Below are positions 1 to 9,785 of a stretch of DNA of 64,000 nucleotides, one piece after another. Both the position numbers and the translations under genes were made by a program. The notes beneath the pieces were generated by a model. That model did no database searches. It saw only the letters and a list, made by a program, of their open reading frames with translations, and was not told the DNA's origin. How positions within the stretch are numbered: position 1 is the stretch's first letter; every line of letters starts with the position of its first letter. Source of the DNA: Escherichia phage moskry; the sequence record MN850651.1, one strand, 5' to 3'.

Positions 1-927
1 ATGTCAGGTTATAATGCACAAAACCCTAAAGAATTAAAGGATGTAATATTACGTCGTTTAGGCGCTCCTATTGTAAATGTTGAATTAACTACAGACCAAA
101 TTTATGATTGTATTTCACGAGCGTTAGAACTTTATGGCGAATACCATTTTGACGGGTTGAATAAAGGTTTCCATGTATTTTTTGTTGATGACGAAGAAAA
201 ATACCGTCACGGCGTATTTGATATGCGTGGTTCTAACGTATTTGCTGTAACAAGAATTATAAGAACAAACGTTGGCTCTATTACTTCAATGGATGGTAAT
301 GCAACTTATCCATGGTTCACTGATTTCCTTTTAGGAATGGCAGGTGTTTCAGGTGGTATGGGTAGTAATTGTGGTAAATTCTACGGCCCGAACGCTTTTG
401 GCGCTGACCTCGGGTATTATTCTCAATTAGTATCTTATATGGGTATGCTTCAAGATATGATTGCTCCTCTTCCAGATTTTTGGTTTAACTCTGCAAACGA
501 GCAATTAAAAGTAATGGGTAACTTTAGACAGAAAGATGTCATTATCGTTGAATCGTACGTTCGCTCTTATATCGAGACCCATAAGATGGTAGGAAATACA
601 GTAGGGTACGGTCAGGTCGGTCCTCGTGATTCATGGTCTATTTCTGAACGTTATGATAATCCAGACCATAATTTGGTCGGACGTCGAGTTGGTGAAGATC
701 CTGCAACTAAACAAGGCGCATATAACAACCGCTGGGTTAAAGATTATGCAACTGCATTAGCTAAAGAGCTTAATGGACAAATTCTTGCTAAACATCAAGG
801 TATGATGTTACCGGGTGGCGTCACTGTTGATGGTGTTCGATTAATTGAAGAAGCTCGTTTAGAGAAAGAAGCTTTACGAGAAGAGTTATATTTACTGGAC
901 CCTCCTGCAGGTATTTTGGTAGGTTAA
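1..927 (+). CDS. 13: Neck protein gp13
   Basis: 308 aa ORF starting at window position 1; N-terminus [23 protein letters not shown] matches T4 gp13 (309 aa); synteny 13-14-15. Confidence 0.92.
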
Positions 928-928
928 T

Positions 929-1564
929 ATGGCAACATACTACAGATTGTATATTACAACATTTGAAACATCCACCGGTATAAAGATTTATGGTGGTAAA
1001 CACAAATCAGTTTACGAAGACCCTTCAAAAGACCCTTATACTGGGTCTGGTACCTTTATACGAAGGGCCAAAAGAAAATACGGTCCGTCTTGTATAAAAG
1101 AAATTATATGGTCTAAGCCATTTGAATCTAAAGCTCTAATGGATGAAGCTGAAGAGTTACTGGTAGATGAATTATCCATTTTAGAAAATTGCGCAAATCT
1201 TGTTAAAGGTGGTGCAGGCGGAAGGTCGTATATTAACCCAGAAGATAATCCATCTATAGGACAAAAACGTTCAGTCCAAACTAAAAAGAAAATGTCTGAC
1301 GCCGCAAAATCAAGAAAATGGACTGAAGAAGGGTTAAGAAAACGTAAAGAATCTACAGCAAGAATGTGGAAAGATTTCAAACATAGACATCCTGATTTTT
1401 CTGGTTCAAAAAATCCAGCAGCTCGAAAAGTTAGTGTAAATGGTAAAATATTTAACACCTGCAAAGAATGTGGTGAAGAATTTAATATCACATCAAGCGC
1501 GGTTATAGGCCGATGCAAAAACAACAAACCTAAATGGGCAGGATGGAATTATGTCGACGTATAA
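929..1564 (+). CDS. Free-standing homing endonuclease, GIY-YIG-like (seg-like) with NUMOD-like C-terminal DNA-binding repeats
   Basis: 211 aa ORF inserted between 13 and 14 (absent in T4); N-terminal YRLYIT...GIKIYGGKH resembles the GIY-(10-11)-YIG motif; basic C-terminus with NUMOD3-like [17 protein letters not shown] repeat; overlaps gene 14 start. Confidence 0.6.
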
Positions 1565-2315
1565 TTCAAATTTATTTGCAAAGTTAGAAAACCGAGAAGG
1601 CTATTCTAAAACTAATGAAACCGAGATTTTAAACAAATACGTGAACTTCAACAAATACGAAAATAGTCAGACATTAGCCGATGTTCTAGTGGCAGAAAGC
1701 ATACAGATGCGCGGTATTGAATGTTTTTATGTTCCACGTGAATATGTTGCCGTGGACCTTATCTTTGGTGAGGACCTTAAAAATAAATTTACTAAAGCAT
1801 GGAAATTTGCGGCATATCTGAACTCATTTGAAGGTTATGAAGGAGCGAAATCGTTCTTCAGCAACTTCGGAATGCAAGTTCAAGACGAAGTTACATTATC
1901 TATTAACCCGGGTCTTTTCAAACACCAGGTCAACAATCAGGAGCCCAAGGAAGGTGATTTAATATACTTCCCAATGGACAACAGTTTGTTTGAGATTAAC
2001 TGGGTTGAACCATATGACCCATTCTATCAAGTAGGTAAAAATGCGATTCGTAAAATTACTGCAGGCAAGTTTATTTACTCTGGCGAAGAAATCAATCCGG
2101 TGCTTCAGAAAAATGAAGGTATCAATATACCTGAATTTAGTGACTTGGAACTTAACCCTGTTAGAAATCTTGACGGTATCCATGACATTAATATCGATGA
2201 ATATTCTGAAGTTGAGCAAATCAATTCAGAGGCAAGTGAATACGTTGAGCCGTATGTAGTAGTTAACAACCGTGGTAGACAAAATTCACCATTTGACGAT
2301 GGGTTTATGAATTAA
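1551..2315 (+). CDS. 14: Neck protein gp14
   Basis: 254 aa; [20 protein letters not shown] matches T4 gp14 N-terminus; synteny. Confidence 0.9.
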
Positions 2316-2364
2316 TAAATAGATAAGATAAAGCAAACACCGGTCGAAAGGCCGGTTAGGAGAA

Positions 2365-3189
2365 ATGATGTTTGGTTATTTTTACAACTCGTCGTTCAGG
2401 CGATATATCACAATGATGGGCGATTTGTTTTCAAATATCCAAGTTAACCGTCAATTGTCTACAGGCAATAAATTAATTAGAGTTCCTATTACGTATGCAT
2501 CTAAAGAGCACTTTATGATGAAACTTAATAAATGGACCTCTATAAACTCACAAGAAGATGTGGCTAAAGTCGAAACTATTCTACCACGTATAAATCTCCA
2601 AATGGTAGATTTCGTTTATAACCCAACGTTTAAAACGAATATATTGAATAACTCTCTTTTGAGTAAATCGACTAAGGATATTGTAGACCAATACAACCCA
2701 TCACCAATTAAAATGATTTTTGAACTGAGCATCTTTACTCGTTATGAAGATGATATGTTCCAAATCGTTGAGCAAATTATTCCATATTTTCAGCCGCATT
2801 TTAATACGACTATGATTGAGCAATATGGGCAGGATATTCCATTTGAAAGGGATATTAAAGTCGTATGGATGGCAGCAGCAATGGATGAACAAATAGACGG
2901 TGATAATTTATCCCGTCGACGTTTAGAGTGGTCATTAACATTTGAAGTAAATGGATGGATGTATCCTCCGGTAGGCGCAGCTGAAGGCCTTATTAAAACG
3001 ACTTATCTTGATTTTCATGCTAATGAACGAGACCTTCAAACAGCCGCCAGTGTTTTTGAATCAGTTGATACAGAAATTAAACCGAGAGACGTTGAAGCAC
3101 AAGATTGGAATGGCGAAGTTGAACAAACTTATACTCATGATATTCCAATCCCGACTCCACCAACCCCTCCTGGTCCTAGAAAACAATAA
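2365..3189 (+). CDS. 15: Tail sheath stabilizer / tail completion protein gp15
   Basis: 274 aa; size and position match T4 gp15 (272 aa). Confidence 0.88.
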   Translation: MMFGYFYNSSFRRYITMMGDLFSNIQVNRQLSTGNKLIRVPITYASKEHFMMKLNKWTSINSQEDVAKVETILPRINLQMVDFVYNPTFKTNILNNSLLSKSTKDIVDQYNPSPIKMIFELSIFTRYEDDMFQIVEQIIPYFQPHFNTTMIEQYGQDIPFERDIKVVWMAAAMDEQIDGDNLSRRRLEWSLTFEVNGWMYPPVGAAEGLIKTTYLDFHANERDLQTAASVFESVDTEIKPRDVEAQDWNGEVEQTYTHDIPIPTPPTPPGPRKQ

Positions 3190-5515
<2,326 letters not shown>

Positions 5516-5542
5516 AAATAAAGCAAATTAAGAGGAATTAAA

Positions 5543-7525
5543 ATGGCACTTCTCTCTCCGGGCGTTGAGCTCAAAGAAACTACCGTACAGAGTACTGTAG
5601 TTAATAACTCCACTGGTACTGCTGCCCTGGCTGGAAAATTCCAATGGGGACCTGCATTCCAGATTAAACAAATCACTGATGAAGTTGCATTAGTTGATAT
5701 GTTTGGTACTCCTAATACGGATACAGCAGATTATTTCATGTCTGCTATGAACTTCCTTCAATATGGTAATGACCTTCGTGTTGTACGCGCAGTTGATCGT
5801 GATACTGCTAAGAACTCATCTCCTGTAGCAGGCAATATTGAATTCACAATCTCTGCTACTGGTAGTAACTATGCAGTTGGTGATAAAATTATCGTTAAGT
5901 ATTTGACCGAAACTGTTGAAGCAGATGGTTATGTCACTTCAGTTGATGTCGATGGTAAAATTCTTAACATTTATATCCCAACCGGTAAAATTATTGCTCG
6001 TGCAAAAGAAATTAATGAATATCCGGCATTGGGTTCTAACTGGACCGCCGAAGTTGCCAGTTCTTCTTCTGGTCTCTCTGGCGTTATTACAATTGGTTCT
6101 ATCGTAACCGATTCGGGTATTCTGTTAACTGAAGTTGAAACTTCTGAAGAAGCTATTACTTCTCTAACTTTCCAAGAATCTATTAAAAAATATGGTGTCC
6201 CAGGCGTAGTTGCTCTTTATCCTGGTGAACTTGGCGACCAGCTCGAAATTGAAATCGTATCTAAAGCAGACTATGACAAAGGTGCTTCAGCCCAGTTAAA
6301 AATTTATCCTGATGGTGGTACTCGTGCATCTACTGCTAAAGCAATCTTTGGGTATGGCCCACAAACTGATGACCAATATGCAATTATCGTTCGTCGTAAC
6401 GATGCTGTAGTTCAGAGCGTAGTTCTTTCTACTAAACGTGGTGAACGCGATATTTATGGTAGTAATATCTTTATTGATGATTTCTTTGCTAAAGGCGCAA
6501 GCAATTATATTTTCGCTACTGCACAAGGTTGGCCAAAAGGTTTCTCTGGCGTAATCAAACTGGGTGGTGGCTTATCATCTAATGAAACGGTTGACGCTGG
6601 TGATTTAATGGAAGCTTGGGATTTGTTTGCTGACCGTGAATCTGTTAATGCGCAGTTGTTTATTGCCGGTTCTTGTGCAGGTGAATCTTTAGAAGTTGCT
6701 TCTACAGTTCAGAAACATGTTGTAGCAATTGGTGATTCTCGCCAAGATTGCTTGGTTCTTTGCTCACCGCCACGTGCAACTATAGTCGGTATTCCTGTTA
6801 ATCGTGCAGTTGATAATCTGGTTGATTGGCGTACTGCGTCAGGAACTTACACCGATAATAACTTTAATGTAAGTTCTACTTATGCCGCTATTGACGGTAA
6901 CTATAAATATCAATATGACAAATATAATGATGTGAATCGTTGGGTTCCATTAGCCGCTGATATCGCTGGACTTTGTGCTCGTACAGACAATATTTCTCAG
7001 CCTTGGATGTCTCCAGCCGGTTATAACCGTGGACAAATTCTTAACGTTATTAAGCTTGCAATTGAAACTCGCCAAGCACAACGTGATCGTTTGTATCAGG
7101 AAGCTATTAACCCTGTTACTGGTACCGGTGGTGATGGATATGTTCTGTACGGTGATAAAACTGCCACTTCTGTTCCTTCGCCATTTGACCGTATTAACGT
7201 ACGTCGTTTGTTTAACATGGTTAAAACGAACATTGGTTCAGCATCTAAATATCGCCTGTTTGAATTGAACAACGCATTTACCCGTTCTTCTTTCCGTACA
7301 GAGACTTCTCAATATCTACAGGGTATTAAAGCTCTCGGTGGTGTATATAACTTTAAAGTTGTTTGTGATACTACCAATAACACTCCAGCAGTTATCGACC
7401 GTAATGAATTTGTAGCTACTTTCTACTTACAACCTGCCCGCTCGATAAATTATATTACGTTGAACTTTGTAGCAACAGCAACTGGTGCCGATTTCGACGA
7501 ACTAATTGGTGCTGTAGGTGGTTAA
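5543..7525 (+). CDS. 18: Tail sheath protein gp18
   Basis: 660 aa; MALLSPGVELKETTVQST... as in T4 gp18 (659 aa). Confidence 0.95.
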   Translation: MALLSPGVELKETTVQSTVVNNSTGTAALAGKFQWGPAFQIKQITDEVALVDMFGTPNTDTADYFMSAMNFLQYGNDLRVVRAVDRDTAKNSSPVAGNIEFTISATGSNYAVGDKIIVKYLTETVEADGYVTSVDVDGKILNIYIPTGKIIARAKEINEYPALGSNWTAEVASSSSGLSGVITIGSIVTDSGILLTEVETSEEAITSLTFQESIKKYGVPGVVALYPGELGDQLEIEIVSKADYDKGASAQLKIYPDGGTRASTAKAIFGYGPQTDDQYAIIVRRNDAVVQSVVLSTKRGERDIYGSNIFIDDFFAKGASNYIFATAQGWPKGFSGVIKLGGGLSSNETVDAGDLMEAWDLFADRESVNAQLFIAGSCAGESLEVASTVQKHVVAIGDSRQDCLVLCSPPRATIVGIPVNRAVDNLVDWRTASGTYTDNNFNVSSTYAAIDGNYKYQYDKYNDVNRWVPLAADIAGLCARTDNISQPWMSPAGYNRGQILNVIKLAIETRQAQRDRLYQEAINPVTGTGGDGYVLYGDKTATSVPSPFDRINVRRLFNMVKTNIGSASKYRLFELNNAFTRSSFRTETSQYLQGIKALGGVYNFKVVCDTTNNTPAVIDRNEFVATFYLQPARSINYITLNFVATATGADFDELIGAVGG

Positions 7526-7536
7526 TAAGACGCCTG

Positions 7537-7558
7537 ATGGGCTATTTCGGTAGCCCAT
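7537..7558 (+). terminator. Hairpin after gene 18 (terminator or RNA-stability element)
   Basis: ATGGGCTA-tttcgg-TAGCCCAT, 8-bp stem, immediately before the gene 19 late promoter. Confidence 0.5.
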
Positions 7559-7565
7559 ATAAATA
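7558..7565 (+). promoter_or_regulatory. Late promoter TATAAATA upstream of gene 19
   Basis: Exact TATAAATA in the 18-19 intergenic region, flanked by two hairpins. Confidence 0.65.
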
Positions 7566-7637
7566 TACTATATCGTTTAAAAATTAATTCTATGGGCATC
7601 CGGTTAATCCTAGGCCCATATTACTACAGAGGCTAAT

Positions 7638-8129
7638 ATGTTTGTAGATGACGTAACTCGTGCCTTCGAATCTGGTGATTTCGCTCGCCCTAACCTGTTC
7701 GAAGTAGAAATCTCTTATCTTGGGCAAAACTTTAGCTTCCAGTGTCGTGCTACGGCTCTTCCTGCTGCGATAGTTGAAAAGGTTCCTGTTTCTTATATGA
7801 ACCGTAAAATTAACGTGGCTGGTGATCGTACATTCGATGATTGGACTATTACAGTAATGAACGATGATGCTCATAGCATTCGTCAGAAATTTGTTGATTG
7901 GCAAGGTATTGCAGCAGGACAAGGTAATGAAATTACCGGTGGTAAACCTGCTGAATATAAAAAGTCTGCTATCGTTCGTCAATTTGCTCGTGATGCTAAA
8001 ACGGTCACTAAAGAAGTTGAAATTGTCGGCTTGTGGCCTACTAACGTTGGTGAAGTATCTCTTGATTGGGATTCTAATAACGAGATTGAAACGTTCGAAG
8101 TAACTCTTGCTCTTGATTGGTGGGAATAA
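7638..8129 (+). CDS. 19: Tail tube protein gp19
   Basis: 163 aa, same length as T4 gp19; MFVDDVTRAFESGDFARPNLFEVEI. Confidence 0.95.
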   Translation: MFVDDVTRAFESGDFARPNLFEVEISYLGQNFSFQCRATALPAAIVEKVPVSYMNRKINVAGDRTFDDWTITVMNDDAHSIRQKFVDWQGIAAGQGNEITGGKPAEYKKSAIVRQFARDAKTVTKEVEIVGLWPTNVGEVSLDWDSNNEIETFEVTLALDWWE

Positions 8130-8177
8130 TCTGGTTGGGGAGAAATCCCCAGCTTCCCGTGATGACGGAGAAGTCCA

Positions 8178-8185
8178 TATAAATA
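8178..8185 (+). promoter_or_regulatory. Late promoter TATAAATA upstream of gene 20
   Basis: Exact TATAAATA about 30 nt upstream of ATG. Confidence 0.7.
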
Positions 8186-8213
8186 TAACTATAATTCCCA
8201 TTCGGAGAATACA

Positions 8214-9785
8214 ATGAAATTTAATATCTTAAGTTTGTTTGCTCCATGGGCAAAAATGGACGAACGTGATTACAAAGACCAAGAAAAAGAAAATTTAGAA
8301 TCTATCACCACACCAAAATTAGACGACGGCGCTAAAGAATACGAAGTATCTGAAAATGAAGCACAGCAAACATATAATGCTATGTTTCAGAGAATGTTTG
8401 GTAGTCAAGAACCAGGGCTCAAATCAACCCGTGAATTAATCGATACGTATCGAAATTTGATGACGAACTATGAAGTGGATAACGCGGTCTCTGAAATAGT
8501 TTCTGATGCTATCGTGTATGAAGATGATACAGAAGTCGTTTCTATAAATTTAGACAACACAAAATTTAGTCCAAATATAAAATCAATGATGTTGGATGAA
8601 TTTAACGAAGTGTTGAATCATTTATCTTTCCAACGTAAAGGTTCAGACCATTTTAGGCGTTGGTATGTAGATTCTCGAATTTTCTTCCATAAAATTATTG
8701 ACCCTAAACGCCCTAAAGAAGGTATTAAAGAGCTTCGTCGTTTAGACCCACGTCAAGTTCAATATGTCCGTGAAGTTATTACAACCACTGAAGCCGGTGT
8801 TAAAATAGTCAAGGGTTATAAAGAATATTTCATTTATGACACATCACACGAATCTTATGCTTGTGATGGTCGCATATATGAAGCTGGCACAAAAATAAAA
8901 ATCCCTAAAGCCGCGATTGTTTACGCCCATTCTGGTTTAGTTGATTGTTGTGGTAAAAATATCATCGGTTATTTGCATCGGGCTATTAAGCCAGCGAACC
9001 AATTAAAACTTCTTGAAGATGCTGTCGTAATTTATCGTATTACTCGTGCTCCCGATCGTCGTGTATGGTACGTTGATACAGGTAATATGCCTTCAAGAAA
9101 AGCAGCAGAACATATGCAACATGTTATGAATACGATGAAAAACCGTATTGCATATGATGCTACTACAGGCAAGATTAAAAACCAGCAGCATATTATGTCG
9201 ATGACCGAAGATTATTGGTTACAACGACGTGATGGTAAAGCAGTAACAGAAGTTGATACATTACCAGGCGCAGATAATACCGGAAATATGGAAGATGTAC
9301 GTTGGTTCCGTAATGCGCTTTATATGGCTTTACGTATTCCTATTACCCGTATTCCAAGTGACCAAGGTGGTATACAGTTTGATGCTGGTACTTCTATTAC
9401 ACGAGATGAATTGTCATTTGGTAAATTTATTCGTGAGCTGCAACATAAATTTGAAGAGATATTCCTAGACCCGCTTAAAACCAATTTAATTCTTAAAGGA
9501 ATTATTACAGAAGATGAGTGGAATGATGAAATAAATAATATTAAGATAAAATTTCATCGGGATAGTTATTTCTCGGAATTAAAGGATGCTGAGATTCTGG
9601 AGCGTCGCATTAATATGCTTCAGATGGCCGAACCATTTATTGGTAAATATATTTCTCACAGAACAGCTATGAAAGATATTCTTCAGATGTCTGACGAGGA
9701 AATTGAACAAGAGGCTAAGCAAATTGAAGAAGAGTCGAAAGAGGCTCGTTTCCAAGACCCCGACCAAGAACAAGAGGATTTTTAA
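8214..9785 (+). CDS. 20: Portal vertex protein gp20
   Basis: 523 aa; T4 gp20 is 524 aa; synteny 19-20-67. Confidence 0.95.

Follow-up and report, generated by a model that had tools for sequence, protein, structure and literature searches.

The open reading frame (ORF) at positions 929..1564 (+ strand) of the window, the 64,000-nt stretch of DNA from Escherichia phage moskry (MN850651.1) that was analysed, is, judging from its sequence, a free-standing gene of the Seg family of GIY-YIG endonucleases. Its product is, with a probability of roughly 0.8, a Seg-type GIY-YIG homing endonuclease composed of an I-TevI-like catalytic domain, a NUMOD3 linker and a helix-turn-helix (HTH) domain, encoded by a cassette that has captured the start codon of the next gene, that would home by cutting at the junction between genes 13 and 14, and that would be protected from its own enzyme by a patch of altered sequence.

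The ORF listing contains a real ORF of 211 codons starting with ATG, located between gene 13 (1..927, + strand, stop TAA at 925-927), which codes for the neck protein or head-tail adaptor (PHROG 211, 2.2e-43), and gene 14 (1551..2315, + strand), which codes for the neck or head closure protein (Pfam PF11649 T4_neck-protein, 2e-127). It has its own stop codon, gene 14 has its own ATG, and both genes overlap by 14 nt (1551-1564). In T4 the gene 13 ORF ends 1 nt before the gene 14 ATG, so that there is no T4 gene at this place, as an earlier note on this DNA had stated. The same note had described a 211-aa ORF that filled a gap between genes 13 and 14 and overlapped the latter; the ORF, with the N-terminus quoted there, and the overlap stand, but the gap does not, because the insertion sits within the opening codons of gene 14. 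A chance ORF was ruled out by the match to PHROG 314 ('homing endonuclease', residues 1-210, 1.3e-37) together with the intact copies present in related phages: the ORF is intact in the eight relatives compared, with 2-4 nt differences from the window copy, and the nine copies are full length and at least 99.4% identical. No paralogue of the endonuclease was found in the 64-kb window. No Rfam family (neither a group I intron nor any other RNA) matched positions 1-3000 at E ≤ 1 and, therefore, the gene is free-standing, as had been proposed, and not intron-encoded; moreover, the net insert of 622 nt, compared with an ORF of 636 nt, leaves no space for a ribozyme. The allele without the gene, previously termed 'intron-less', is properly called the endonuclease-less allele.

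Searches with the single protein sequence were weak or misleading. Neither GIY-YIG (PF01541) nor SegE_GIY-YIG (PF19835) matched the window protein even at E ≤ 1 in a single-sequence Pfam search, in which one NUMOD3 unit (residues 105-123, 6.7e-4, 20.0 bits with a cut-off of 20.4 bits) and the I-TevI_DNA-bd family (residues 159-204, 9.7e-5, 22.6 bits with a cut-off of 27) remained just under or below threshold. The NCBIfam model TIGR01453 ('group I intron endonuclease') matched residues 95-208 below its cut-off (1.2e-6), and phmmer against the PDB with the single sequence returned spurious matches to interferon-gamma and Rad50, and 1i3j at an E-value of 0.11 only. A family profile was therefore needed, for which an alignment of 46 homologues was used. 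This profile matched chain residues 5-93 of the catalytic domain of I-TevI (1ln0, E 5.6e-10; 1mk0, E 1.7e-8), which bears out the GIY-YIG-like N-terminus of the earlier description, and the I-TevI DNA-binding domain (1i3j, E 3.4e-13). Of the basic C-terminal half with NUMOD-like repeats that had also been described, the I-TevI-type DNA-binding region is thus real, but the repeats are reduced to one NUMOD3 unit. A search with the GIY-YIG and NUMOD profiles, suggested earlier as a check, fails with PF01541 for the protein itself but succeeds for 19 of its 46 homologues; 18 of the 46 match SegE_GIY-YIG (PF19835) and 25 match NUMOD3. The AlphaFold2 model (pLDDT 90.6) contains the GIY-YIG alpha/beta fold, and Foldseek found the same two I-TevI chains, with weak E-values.

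The GIY-YIG catalytic domain comprises residues ~4-97 (938..1219, + strand) and contains Y8 (in a GIY-like RLY), Y21-G22-G23 (YIG-like), H25, Y37, G39-S40-G41, K50-Y51-G52, E75 and N90, all of which, H25 apart, are conserved in the family. Y8, Y21, E75 and N90 are invariant or nearly so across it, and the position of the I-TevI R27 falls in an 8-residue alignment gap; K24, H25 and K26 are candidates for its equivalent, the helix that bears Arg27 being shortened. The window protein has K24-H25-K26 (K-H-K-S) where homologues of 52-63% identity have K-R-H-S. The idea that this change of R25 to H is inactivating was not kept, because T4 SegC has the same G-x-H-K (as G-V-H-K-T) and is listed as active (PMC2988022, Table 1). 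The catalytic domain is followed by a basic linker (1241..1369, + strand) with one NUMOD3-like unit (residues 105-123) and a helical segment that extends to residue ~147 (helices 116-127 and 133-149 of the model). The C-terminal part (residues 159-208; 1403..1552, + strand) is an I-TevI-type HTH DNA-binding domain without a zinc-finger cysteine quartet. Two residues inside the NUMOD3-like unit vary between close copies: residue 116 is V in the window (position 1275) and in mogra, and A in the other seven of the eight relatives compared, and residue 118 is T in the window (position 1280) and S in all eight.

The window belongs to a Mosigvirus (RB69-like), being 99.6% identical to phage S143_2. 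Among 242 matching phage records, 12 (a number that includes the GenBank/RefSeq duplicate of phage F2) carry the ORF with full coverage and 98.3-99.6% identity, and about 140 close Mosigvirus records (95-99% identity) are without it, so carriers make up about 8% of the close relatives and phages without the gene about 92%. The comparison of the 13-14 junction in related phages, which had been put forward as a check, therefore revealed a polymorphism, and universal presence is refuted. The non-carriers, among the matches listed, gave two-piece alignments covering 73-74% of the query, which corresponds to the absence of 622 nt, and carriers and non-carriers are 97-99% identical. Gaprivervirus is also polymorphic (9 records with the endonuclease and about 24 without it). 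Homologues of 55-60% identity are found between genes 13 and 14 in Gaprivervirus RZ, VR26 and SP18 (where the gene is called 'segC'), Slopekvirus KpF2 and Dhakavirus vB_EcoM_005; three metagenome contigs, corresponding to two further homologues, also have the endonuclease there, and Krischvirus Phi1 has at this site a 29% identical homologue, again called 'segC', which is among the genes absent from RB49 (Arbiol et al. 2010, PMC2839356).

The public records of the carriers label the gene as 'GIY-YIG endonuclease', 'homing endonuclease' or 'putative endonuclease', and in the literature searched a homing endonuclease at 13/14 is not described beyond annotation-level mentions. Some records deserve a comment. 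In PV204681.1 (phage JQD51), the product names in 3001-8400 are off by one CDS, so that gene 13 is named 'endonuclease', the endonuclease 'head closure protein' and gene 14 'tail sheath stabilization protein'. Phage F2 (MN864145.1 / NC_054913.1) is filed under Tequatrovirus ('Tequatrovirus efftwo'), its region from gene 13 to gene 14 with the endonuclease is 99.1% identical to the window, and on either side of that region it shares 97-99% identity with Mosigvirus phages; this filing is probably a taxonomic mislabel. A 99%-identical protein (cluster P0001) appears in NCBI as the Shigella flexneri 'hypothetical protein' ABH225_001158, on a 90-kb contig, which is most likely phage DNA within a bacterial assembly. 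In vB_EcoM_005 (MK295203.1, 189-2823), the annotation breaks genes 13 and 14, on both sides of the homologous endonuclease, into several short pieces, suggesting sequencing frameshifts or a real disruption of the neck genes.

In endonuclease-less phages, the TAA of gene 13 is followed by 1 base and the ATG of gene 14, and gp14 begins with MATYD (ATGGCNACTTATGAY) in Mosigvirus, T4, Kanagawavirus PEi20 and Gaprivervirus VR20. The junction (TAA, 1 nt, ATGGCNACTTATGAT) is the same in Mosigvirus, T4 and Kanagawavirus, with 27 of 28 nt identical, and Gaprivervirus differs only in the overlap of the stop codon and the ATG. In the window, the captured start of gene 14 is ATG GCA ACA TAC (MATY; 929..940, + strand), compared with ATG GCA ACT TAT in the endonuclease-less allele, and the insertion point lies after nt 940. 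The carriers of both Mosigvirus and Gaprivervirus start with MATY-YRLY, each genus having kept its own GCA or GCT codon. That MATY could be the endonuclease's own N-terminus was rejected, since other members of the family begin with MFY, MQFY or MHY and since endonuclease-less gp14 begins with MATYD in four genera.

The cassette can accordingly be delimited as a promoter-less element of ~660 nt (window ~937-1601), placed in frame after codon 4 of gene 14. Owing to this in-frame position, the endonuclease uses the original ATG and ribosome-binding site of gene 14, and it is translated from this start on the late wac-13-14 message. A Shine-Dalgarno-like AGG (921-923) in the last codons of gene 13, formerly that of gene 14, now serves the endonuclease, and the stretch at the end of gene 13 that contains it is identical in carrying and endonuclease-less alleles. 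The 3' end of the cassette provides gene 14 with another ribosome-binding site, another ATG and 17 initial codons of divergent sequence. The substitute Shine-Dalgarno sequence is AGGA (1540..1543, + strand), 7 nt before the new ATG at 1551, and its counterpart in homologous cassettes is AAGGAG or AAGGAA; it lies within the K-W-x-x-W codons, and the conserved C-terminal K-W-x-x-W-x-Y codons of the endonuclease thus hold both the new Shine-Dalgarno sequence and the new gene 14 start. No late promoter (TATAAATA) was found in 1-5500, and for this reason the cassette is considered promoter-less; sigma-70-like and terminator-like sites were at or below shuffle expectation. RNA structure that could occlude either translation start was not significant (z-scores of +0.9, 0.0 and +0.5). 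Further downstream (window 2339-2356), the spacer between genes 14 and 15 contains a G+C-rich hairpin, ACCGGTCGAAAGGCCGGT, directly 5' of the gene 15 ribosome-binding site, which was scored as a minus-strand terminator-like site only.

The replacement 5' end of gene 14 (1551..1601, + strand), a candidate self-immunity patch, differs from the endonuclease-less allele in 16 of its 51 nt, whereas the rest of gene 14 shows only 4-10 differences in 714 nt with respect to the nearest endonuclease-less haplotypes and 25 in 714 with respect to JK36 (Fisher p from 4e-10 to 5e-17). Twelve codons of the patch differ, eight of them synonymously and four nonsynonymously, the resulting changes at the N-terminus of gp14 being A2S, D5N, K6S and G16E relative to endonuclease-less phages. 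When nine carriers were compared with eight non-carriers, from 1.5 kb upstream to ~3-4 kb downstream, fixed differences between both groups were found only at 937-945 and 1572-1598, the rest of the 1551-1601 patch being visible only by explicit pairing of both gene 14 starts; outside these two stretches there were no long fixed co-conversion tracts in this set, only tracts particular to each genome. The patch resembles the gene 14 start of Kanagawavirus PEi20 (85% over 41 nt; 39 of 51 nt ungapped), and the same MSTYN start of gp14 accompanies a 63%-identical cassette on the metagenome contig L023. The patch, with its likeness to the gene 14 starts of other genera, looks like donor DNA that came along with the endonuclease. 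The N-termini of gp14 differ between carrier lineages (MSTYN, MRNSYD, MYNTTYN and MRDWD).

The DNA around the cassette is mosaic. NicPhage is 99.5% identical upstream and 99.4% identical downstream to the endonuclease-less JK36, but its gene 14 is only 95.8% identical to that of JK36 and 99.7% identical to that of the carrier F2. Followed along its informative sites, NicPhage is of the mar007P3/JK36 type until at least 678-813, is of the carrier type at 45 sites in a row (937 to 1913) and is JK36-like again from 1946, which places the left border of the tract at ~678-937 and the right one at 1913-1946; the downstream flank that moved with the cassette is thus 1602..1913 (+ strand). Tracts analogous to that of NicPhage are present in mogra and SQ17, and the gp12/wac region of the latter is 68% identical to that of other carriers and 94% identical to that of the endonuclease-less Shf125875. 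Near-identical copies in differing backgrounds, together with these tracts, appear to be the expected trace of homing with co-conversion, and the endonuclease appears to have spread among Mosigvirus phages along with short flanking DNA. The carried downstream haplotype is also present in the endonuclease-less F27, KAW3E185 and TH58, so that ordinary recombination could contribute to the mosaic.

Two further peculiarities were observed in these genomes. SQ17 and Shf125875 share in 1-3000 a gp12 (short tail fibre) and wac (fibritin) module with only ~68% identity to its counterpart in the other Mosigviruses, and their genes 13-17 are 96-99% identical to those of other Mosigviruses; a host-range or whisker module seems to have been exchanged. 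In NicPhage (OY726582.1, 5368-6316), the annotation gives gene 15 as two CDS that overlap, in a locus ~127 nt longer than in all its relatives (the small terminase starts at 6326 vs 6199); an insertion, duplication or frameshift in gene 15 could account for this.

In the mechanism proposed for the spread of the cassette, the enzyme would, during a mixed infection, bind the endonuclease-less 13/14 junction of a co-infecting relative (TTGGTAGGTTAATATGGCNACTTAT followed directly by GAT) and make a double-strand break at or near it. Recombinational repair, with the carrying genome as template, would then copy the cassette together with a few hundred nt of gene 14. The carrying genome would be immune, since the insertion interrupts its site and the neighbouring 51 nt have another sequence. 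A wider proposal, to which somewhat less than even odds are given, is that a single Seg lineage has specialised on one highly conserved target (the stop codon of gene 13 with the codons that open gene 14) and has entered it across at least five genera of Straboviridae by 'start-codon capture', the replacement 5' end both restoring gene 14 and giving immunity, with a cut next to the insertion point, as intron-encoded enzymes do. If so, T4 itself would be a predicted substrate.

The main rival to cutting at the junction is an active Seg-type enzyme that cuts a distant site, hundreds of bp away or more, like SegF and SegG, in which case the 51-nt patch would be passenger DNA of the donor without any role in immunity. 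This has a real though clearly minor share of the probability. Those free-standing Seg enzymes that have been characterised usually cut at a distance of hundreds of bp from their own gene, and the cuts of free-standing endonucleases in general lie hundreds to thousands of bp away (PMC2988022), so that a target at the junction would be atypical; the likeness of the patch to the gene 14 start of PEi20 and the occurrence of the MSTYN start with the L023 cassette would also fit hitch-hiking. Against it, carriers show no further fixed difference in the compared range, and at a distant site inside this range carriers would have the same sequence as non-carriers and would then cut themselves; in addition, the tract in NicPhage is short, with the cassette at its centre.

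Inactive homing endonuclease genes are common in phages, and the window gene could likewise be a decaying or inactive remnant that does not cut DNA and is moved only by the general homologous recombination of T4-like genomes, although this is less likely than distant cutting and, on the whole, improbable. The uncertain equivalent of Arg27, the His in place of the R25 of close homologues and the rarity of the gene among close relatives would agree with decay; on the other hand, all nine copies have kept a full-length ORF with few differences, the residues Y8, Y21, E75 and N90 are retained, the G-x-H-K motif is that of a SegC listed as active, near-identical copies in diverged backgrounds indicate a recent spread, and in several genera this site holds a member of the family in some phages and not in others.

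The two remaining alternatives are both very unlikely. Although its presence at the same position in at least five genera would suit a gene that is ancestral to T4-like phages and that most lineages have lost, as opposed to one gained by a few of them, the junction common to Mosigvirus, T4 and Kanagawavirus would have had to be recreated by precise deletions again and again, the differing N-termini of carrier gp14 are derived, and carriers are a minority in each genus. A non-nuclease DNA-binding regulator of late or neck gene expression, sharing with I-TevI its DNA-binding domain only, would agree with the DNA-binding modules being the only above-noise Pfam matches of the single sequence and with I-TevI doubling as a repressor, but not with an N-terminal GIY-YIG fold in which E75 and N90 are conserved, nor with a gene that is dispensable in most close relatives.

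The earlier reading of this region is therefore supported in substance, although it rated the novelty too high: other GenBank records also annotate this gene, and its homologues at the site are named segC in Phi1 and SP18. Gene and site can both already be found in public annotation, and the type belongs to textbook knowledge, free-standing GIY-YIG homing endonucleases being a well-known feature of T4-like phages, so that the finding has little weight beyond a correct annotation. It is nevertheless a tidy natural example, with a precisely defined insertion point in an essential late gene, a 51-nt candidate immunity patch and natural co-conversion tracts, which could be used for testing whether a Seg enzyme can work close to its insertion and how such cassettes pass from one genus to another. 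In phage-therapy genomics, it accounts for a 622-nt indel that recurs and for an N-terminal variant of gp14.

The closest T4 protein is SegC (the ORF adjoining gene 5), which is 33% identical over nearly its full length (E 2e-15); tblastn also found the N-terminus of SegF (37%) and RB3 SegH (32.5%). SegC shares with the window endonuclease the PHROG 314 family, the domain order and the Y-x-G-x-H-K ... Y-x-GSG ... KYG motifs, and both are promoter-less cassettes that overlap an adjacent gene and depend for their transcription on a late or polycistronic message already present (PMC2988022). SegC, however, overlaps its upstream ORF by 20 bp, whereas the window endonuclease takes the start codon of the downstream gene. 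The segC locus lies between genes 5.1 and 5.3, next to genes 5 and 5.4, and the junction between 13 and 14 is absent from the T4 sites of the same table, in agreement with the earlier claim of a location distinct from the known T4 seg and mob genes (PMC2988022, Table 1). A different locus points to a different target, and as the gene at the window site is not an orthologue of segC, the 'segC' label in Phi1 and SP18 reflects similarity only.

I-TevI, encoded in the td intron of T4 (PDB 1ln0/1mk0 and 1i3j/1t2t), has the same two domains, both matched by the family profile, with E75 and N90 at the same residue numbers and a C-terminal HTH that ends in a W-x-(F/W)-Y strand. Unlike I-TevI, the window endonuclease has neither an intron (there is no Rfam match) nor the zinc-finger cysteine quartet, and its segment from the YIG to the equivalent of H40 is 8 residues shorter, so that the I-TevI helix alpha1 with Arg27 and His31 is not conserved. 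The other cassettes between genes 13 and 14 in Straboviridae (SP18, RZ, VR26, KpF2, vB_EcoM_005 and Phi1) occupy the same site in the same orientation, and in them, too, the C-terminal W-x-Y codons overlap the gene 14 ATG; they show the same presence/absence polymorphism, and those of Gaprivervirus have the same MATYY fusion to the gene 14 start. They are, however, only 55-60% identical (29% for Phi1), their replacement N-termini of gene 14 differ, and KpF2 and Phi1 have their own intergenic ribosome-binding site and no captured start. Finally, the 'intronless homing' of SegF and SegG, with marker exclusion between T4 and T2, is similar in involving free-standing GIY-YIG enzymes and co-conversion of flanking DNA (PMC2988022). 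SegF and SegG cut hundreds of bp away, whereas the only carrier-specific differences of the window cassette abut its insertion point, which suggests that the target of the window endonuclease may be intron-like and proximal to the insertion.
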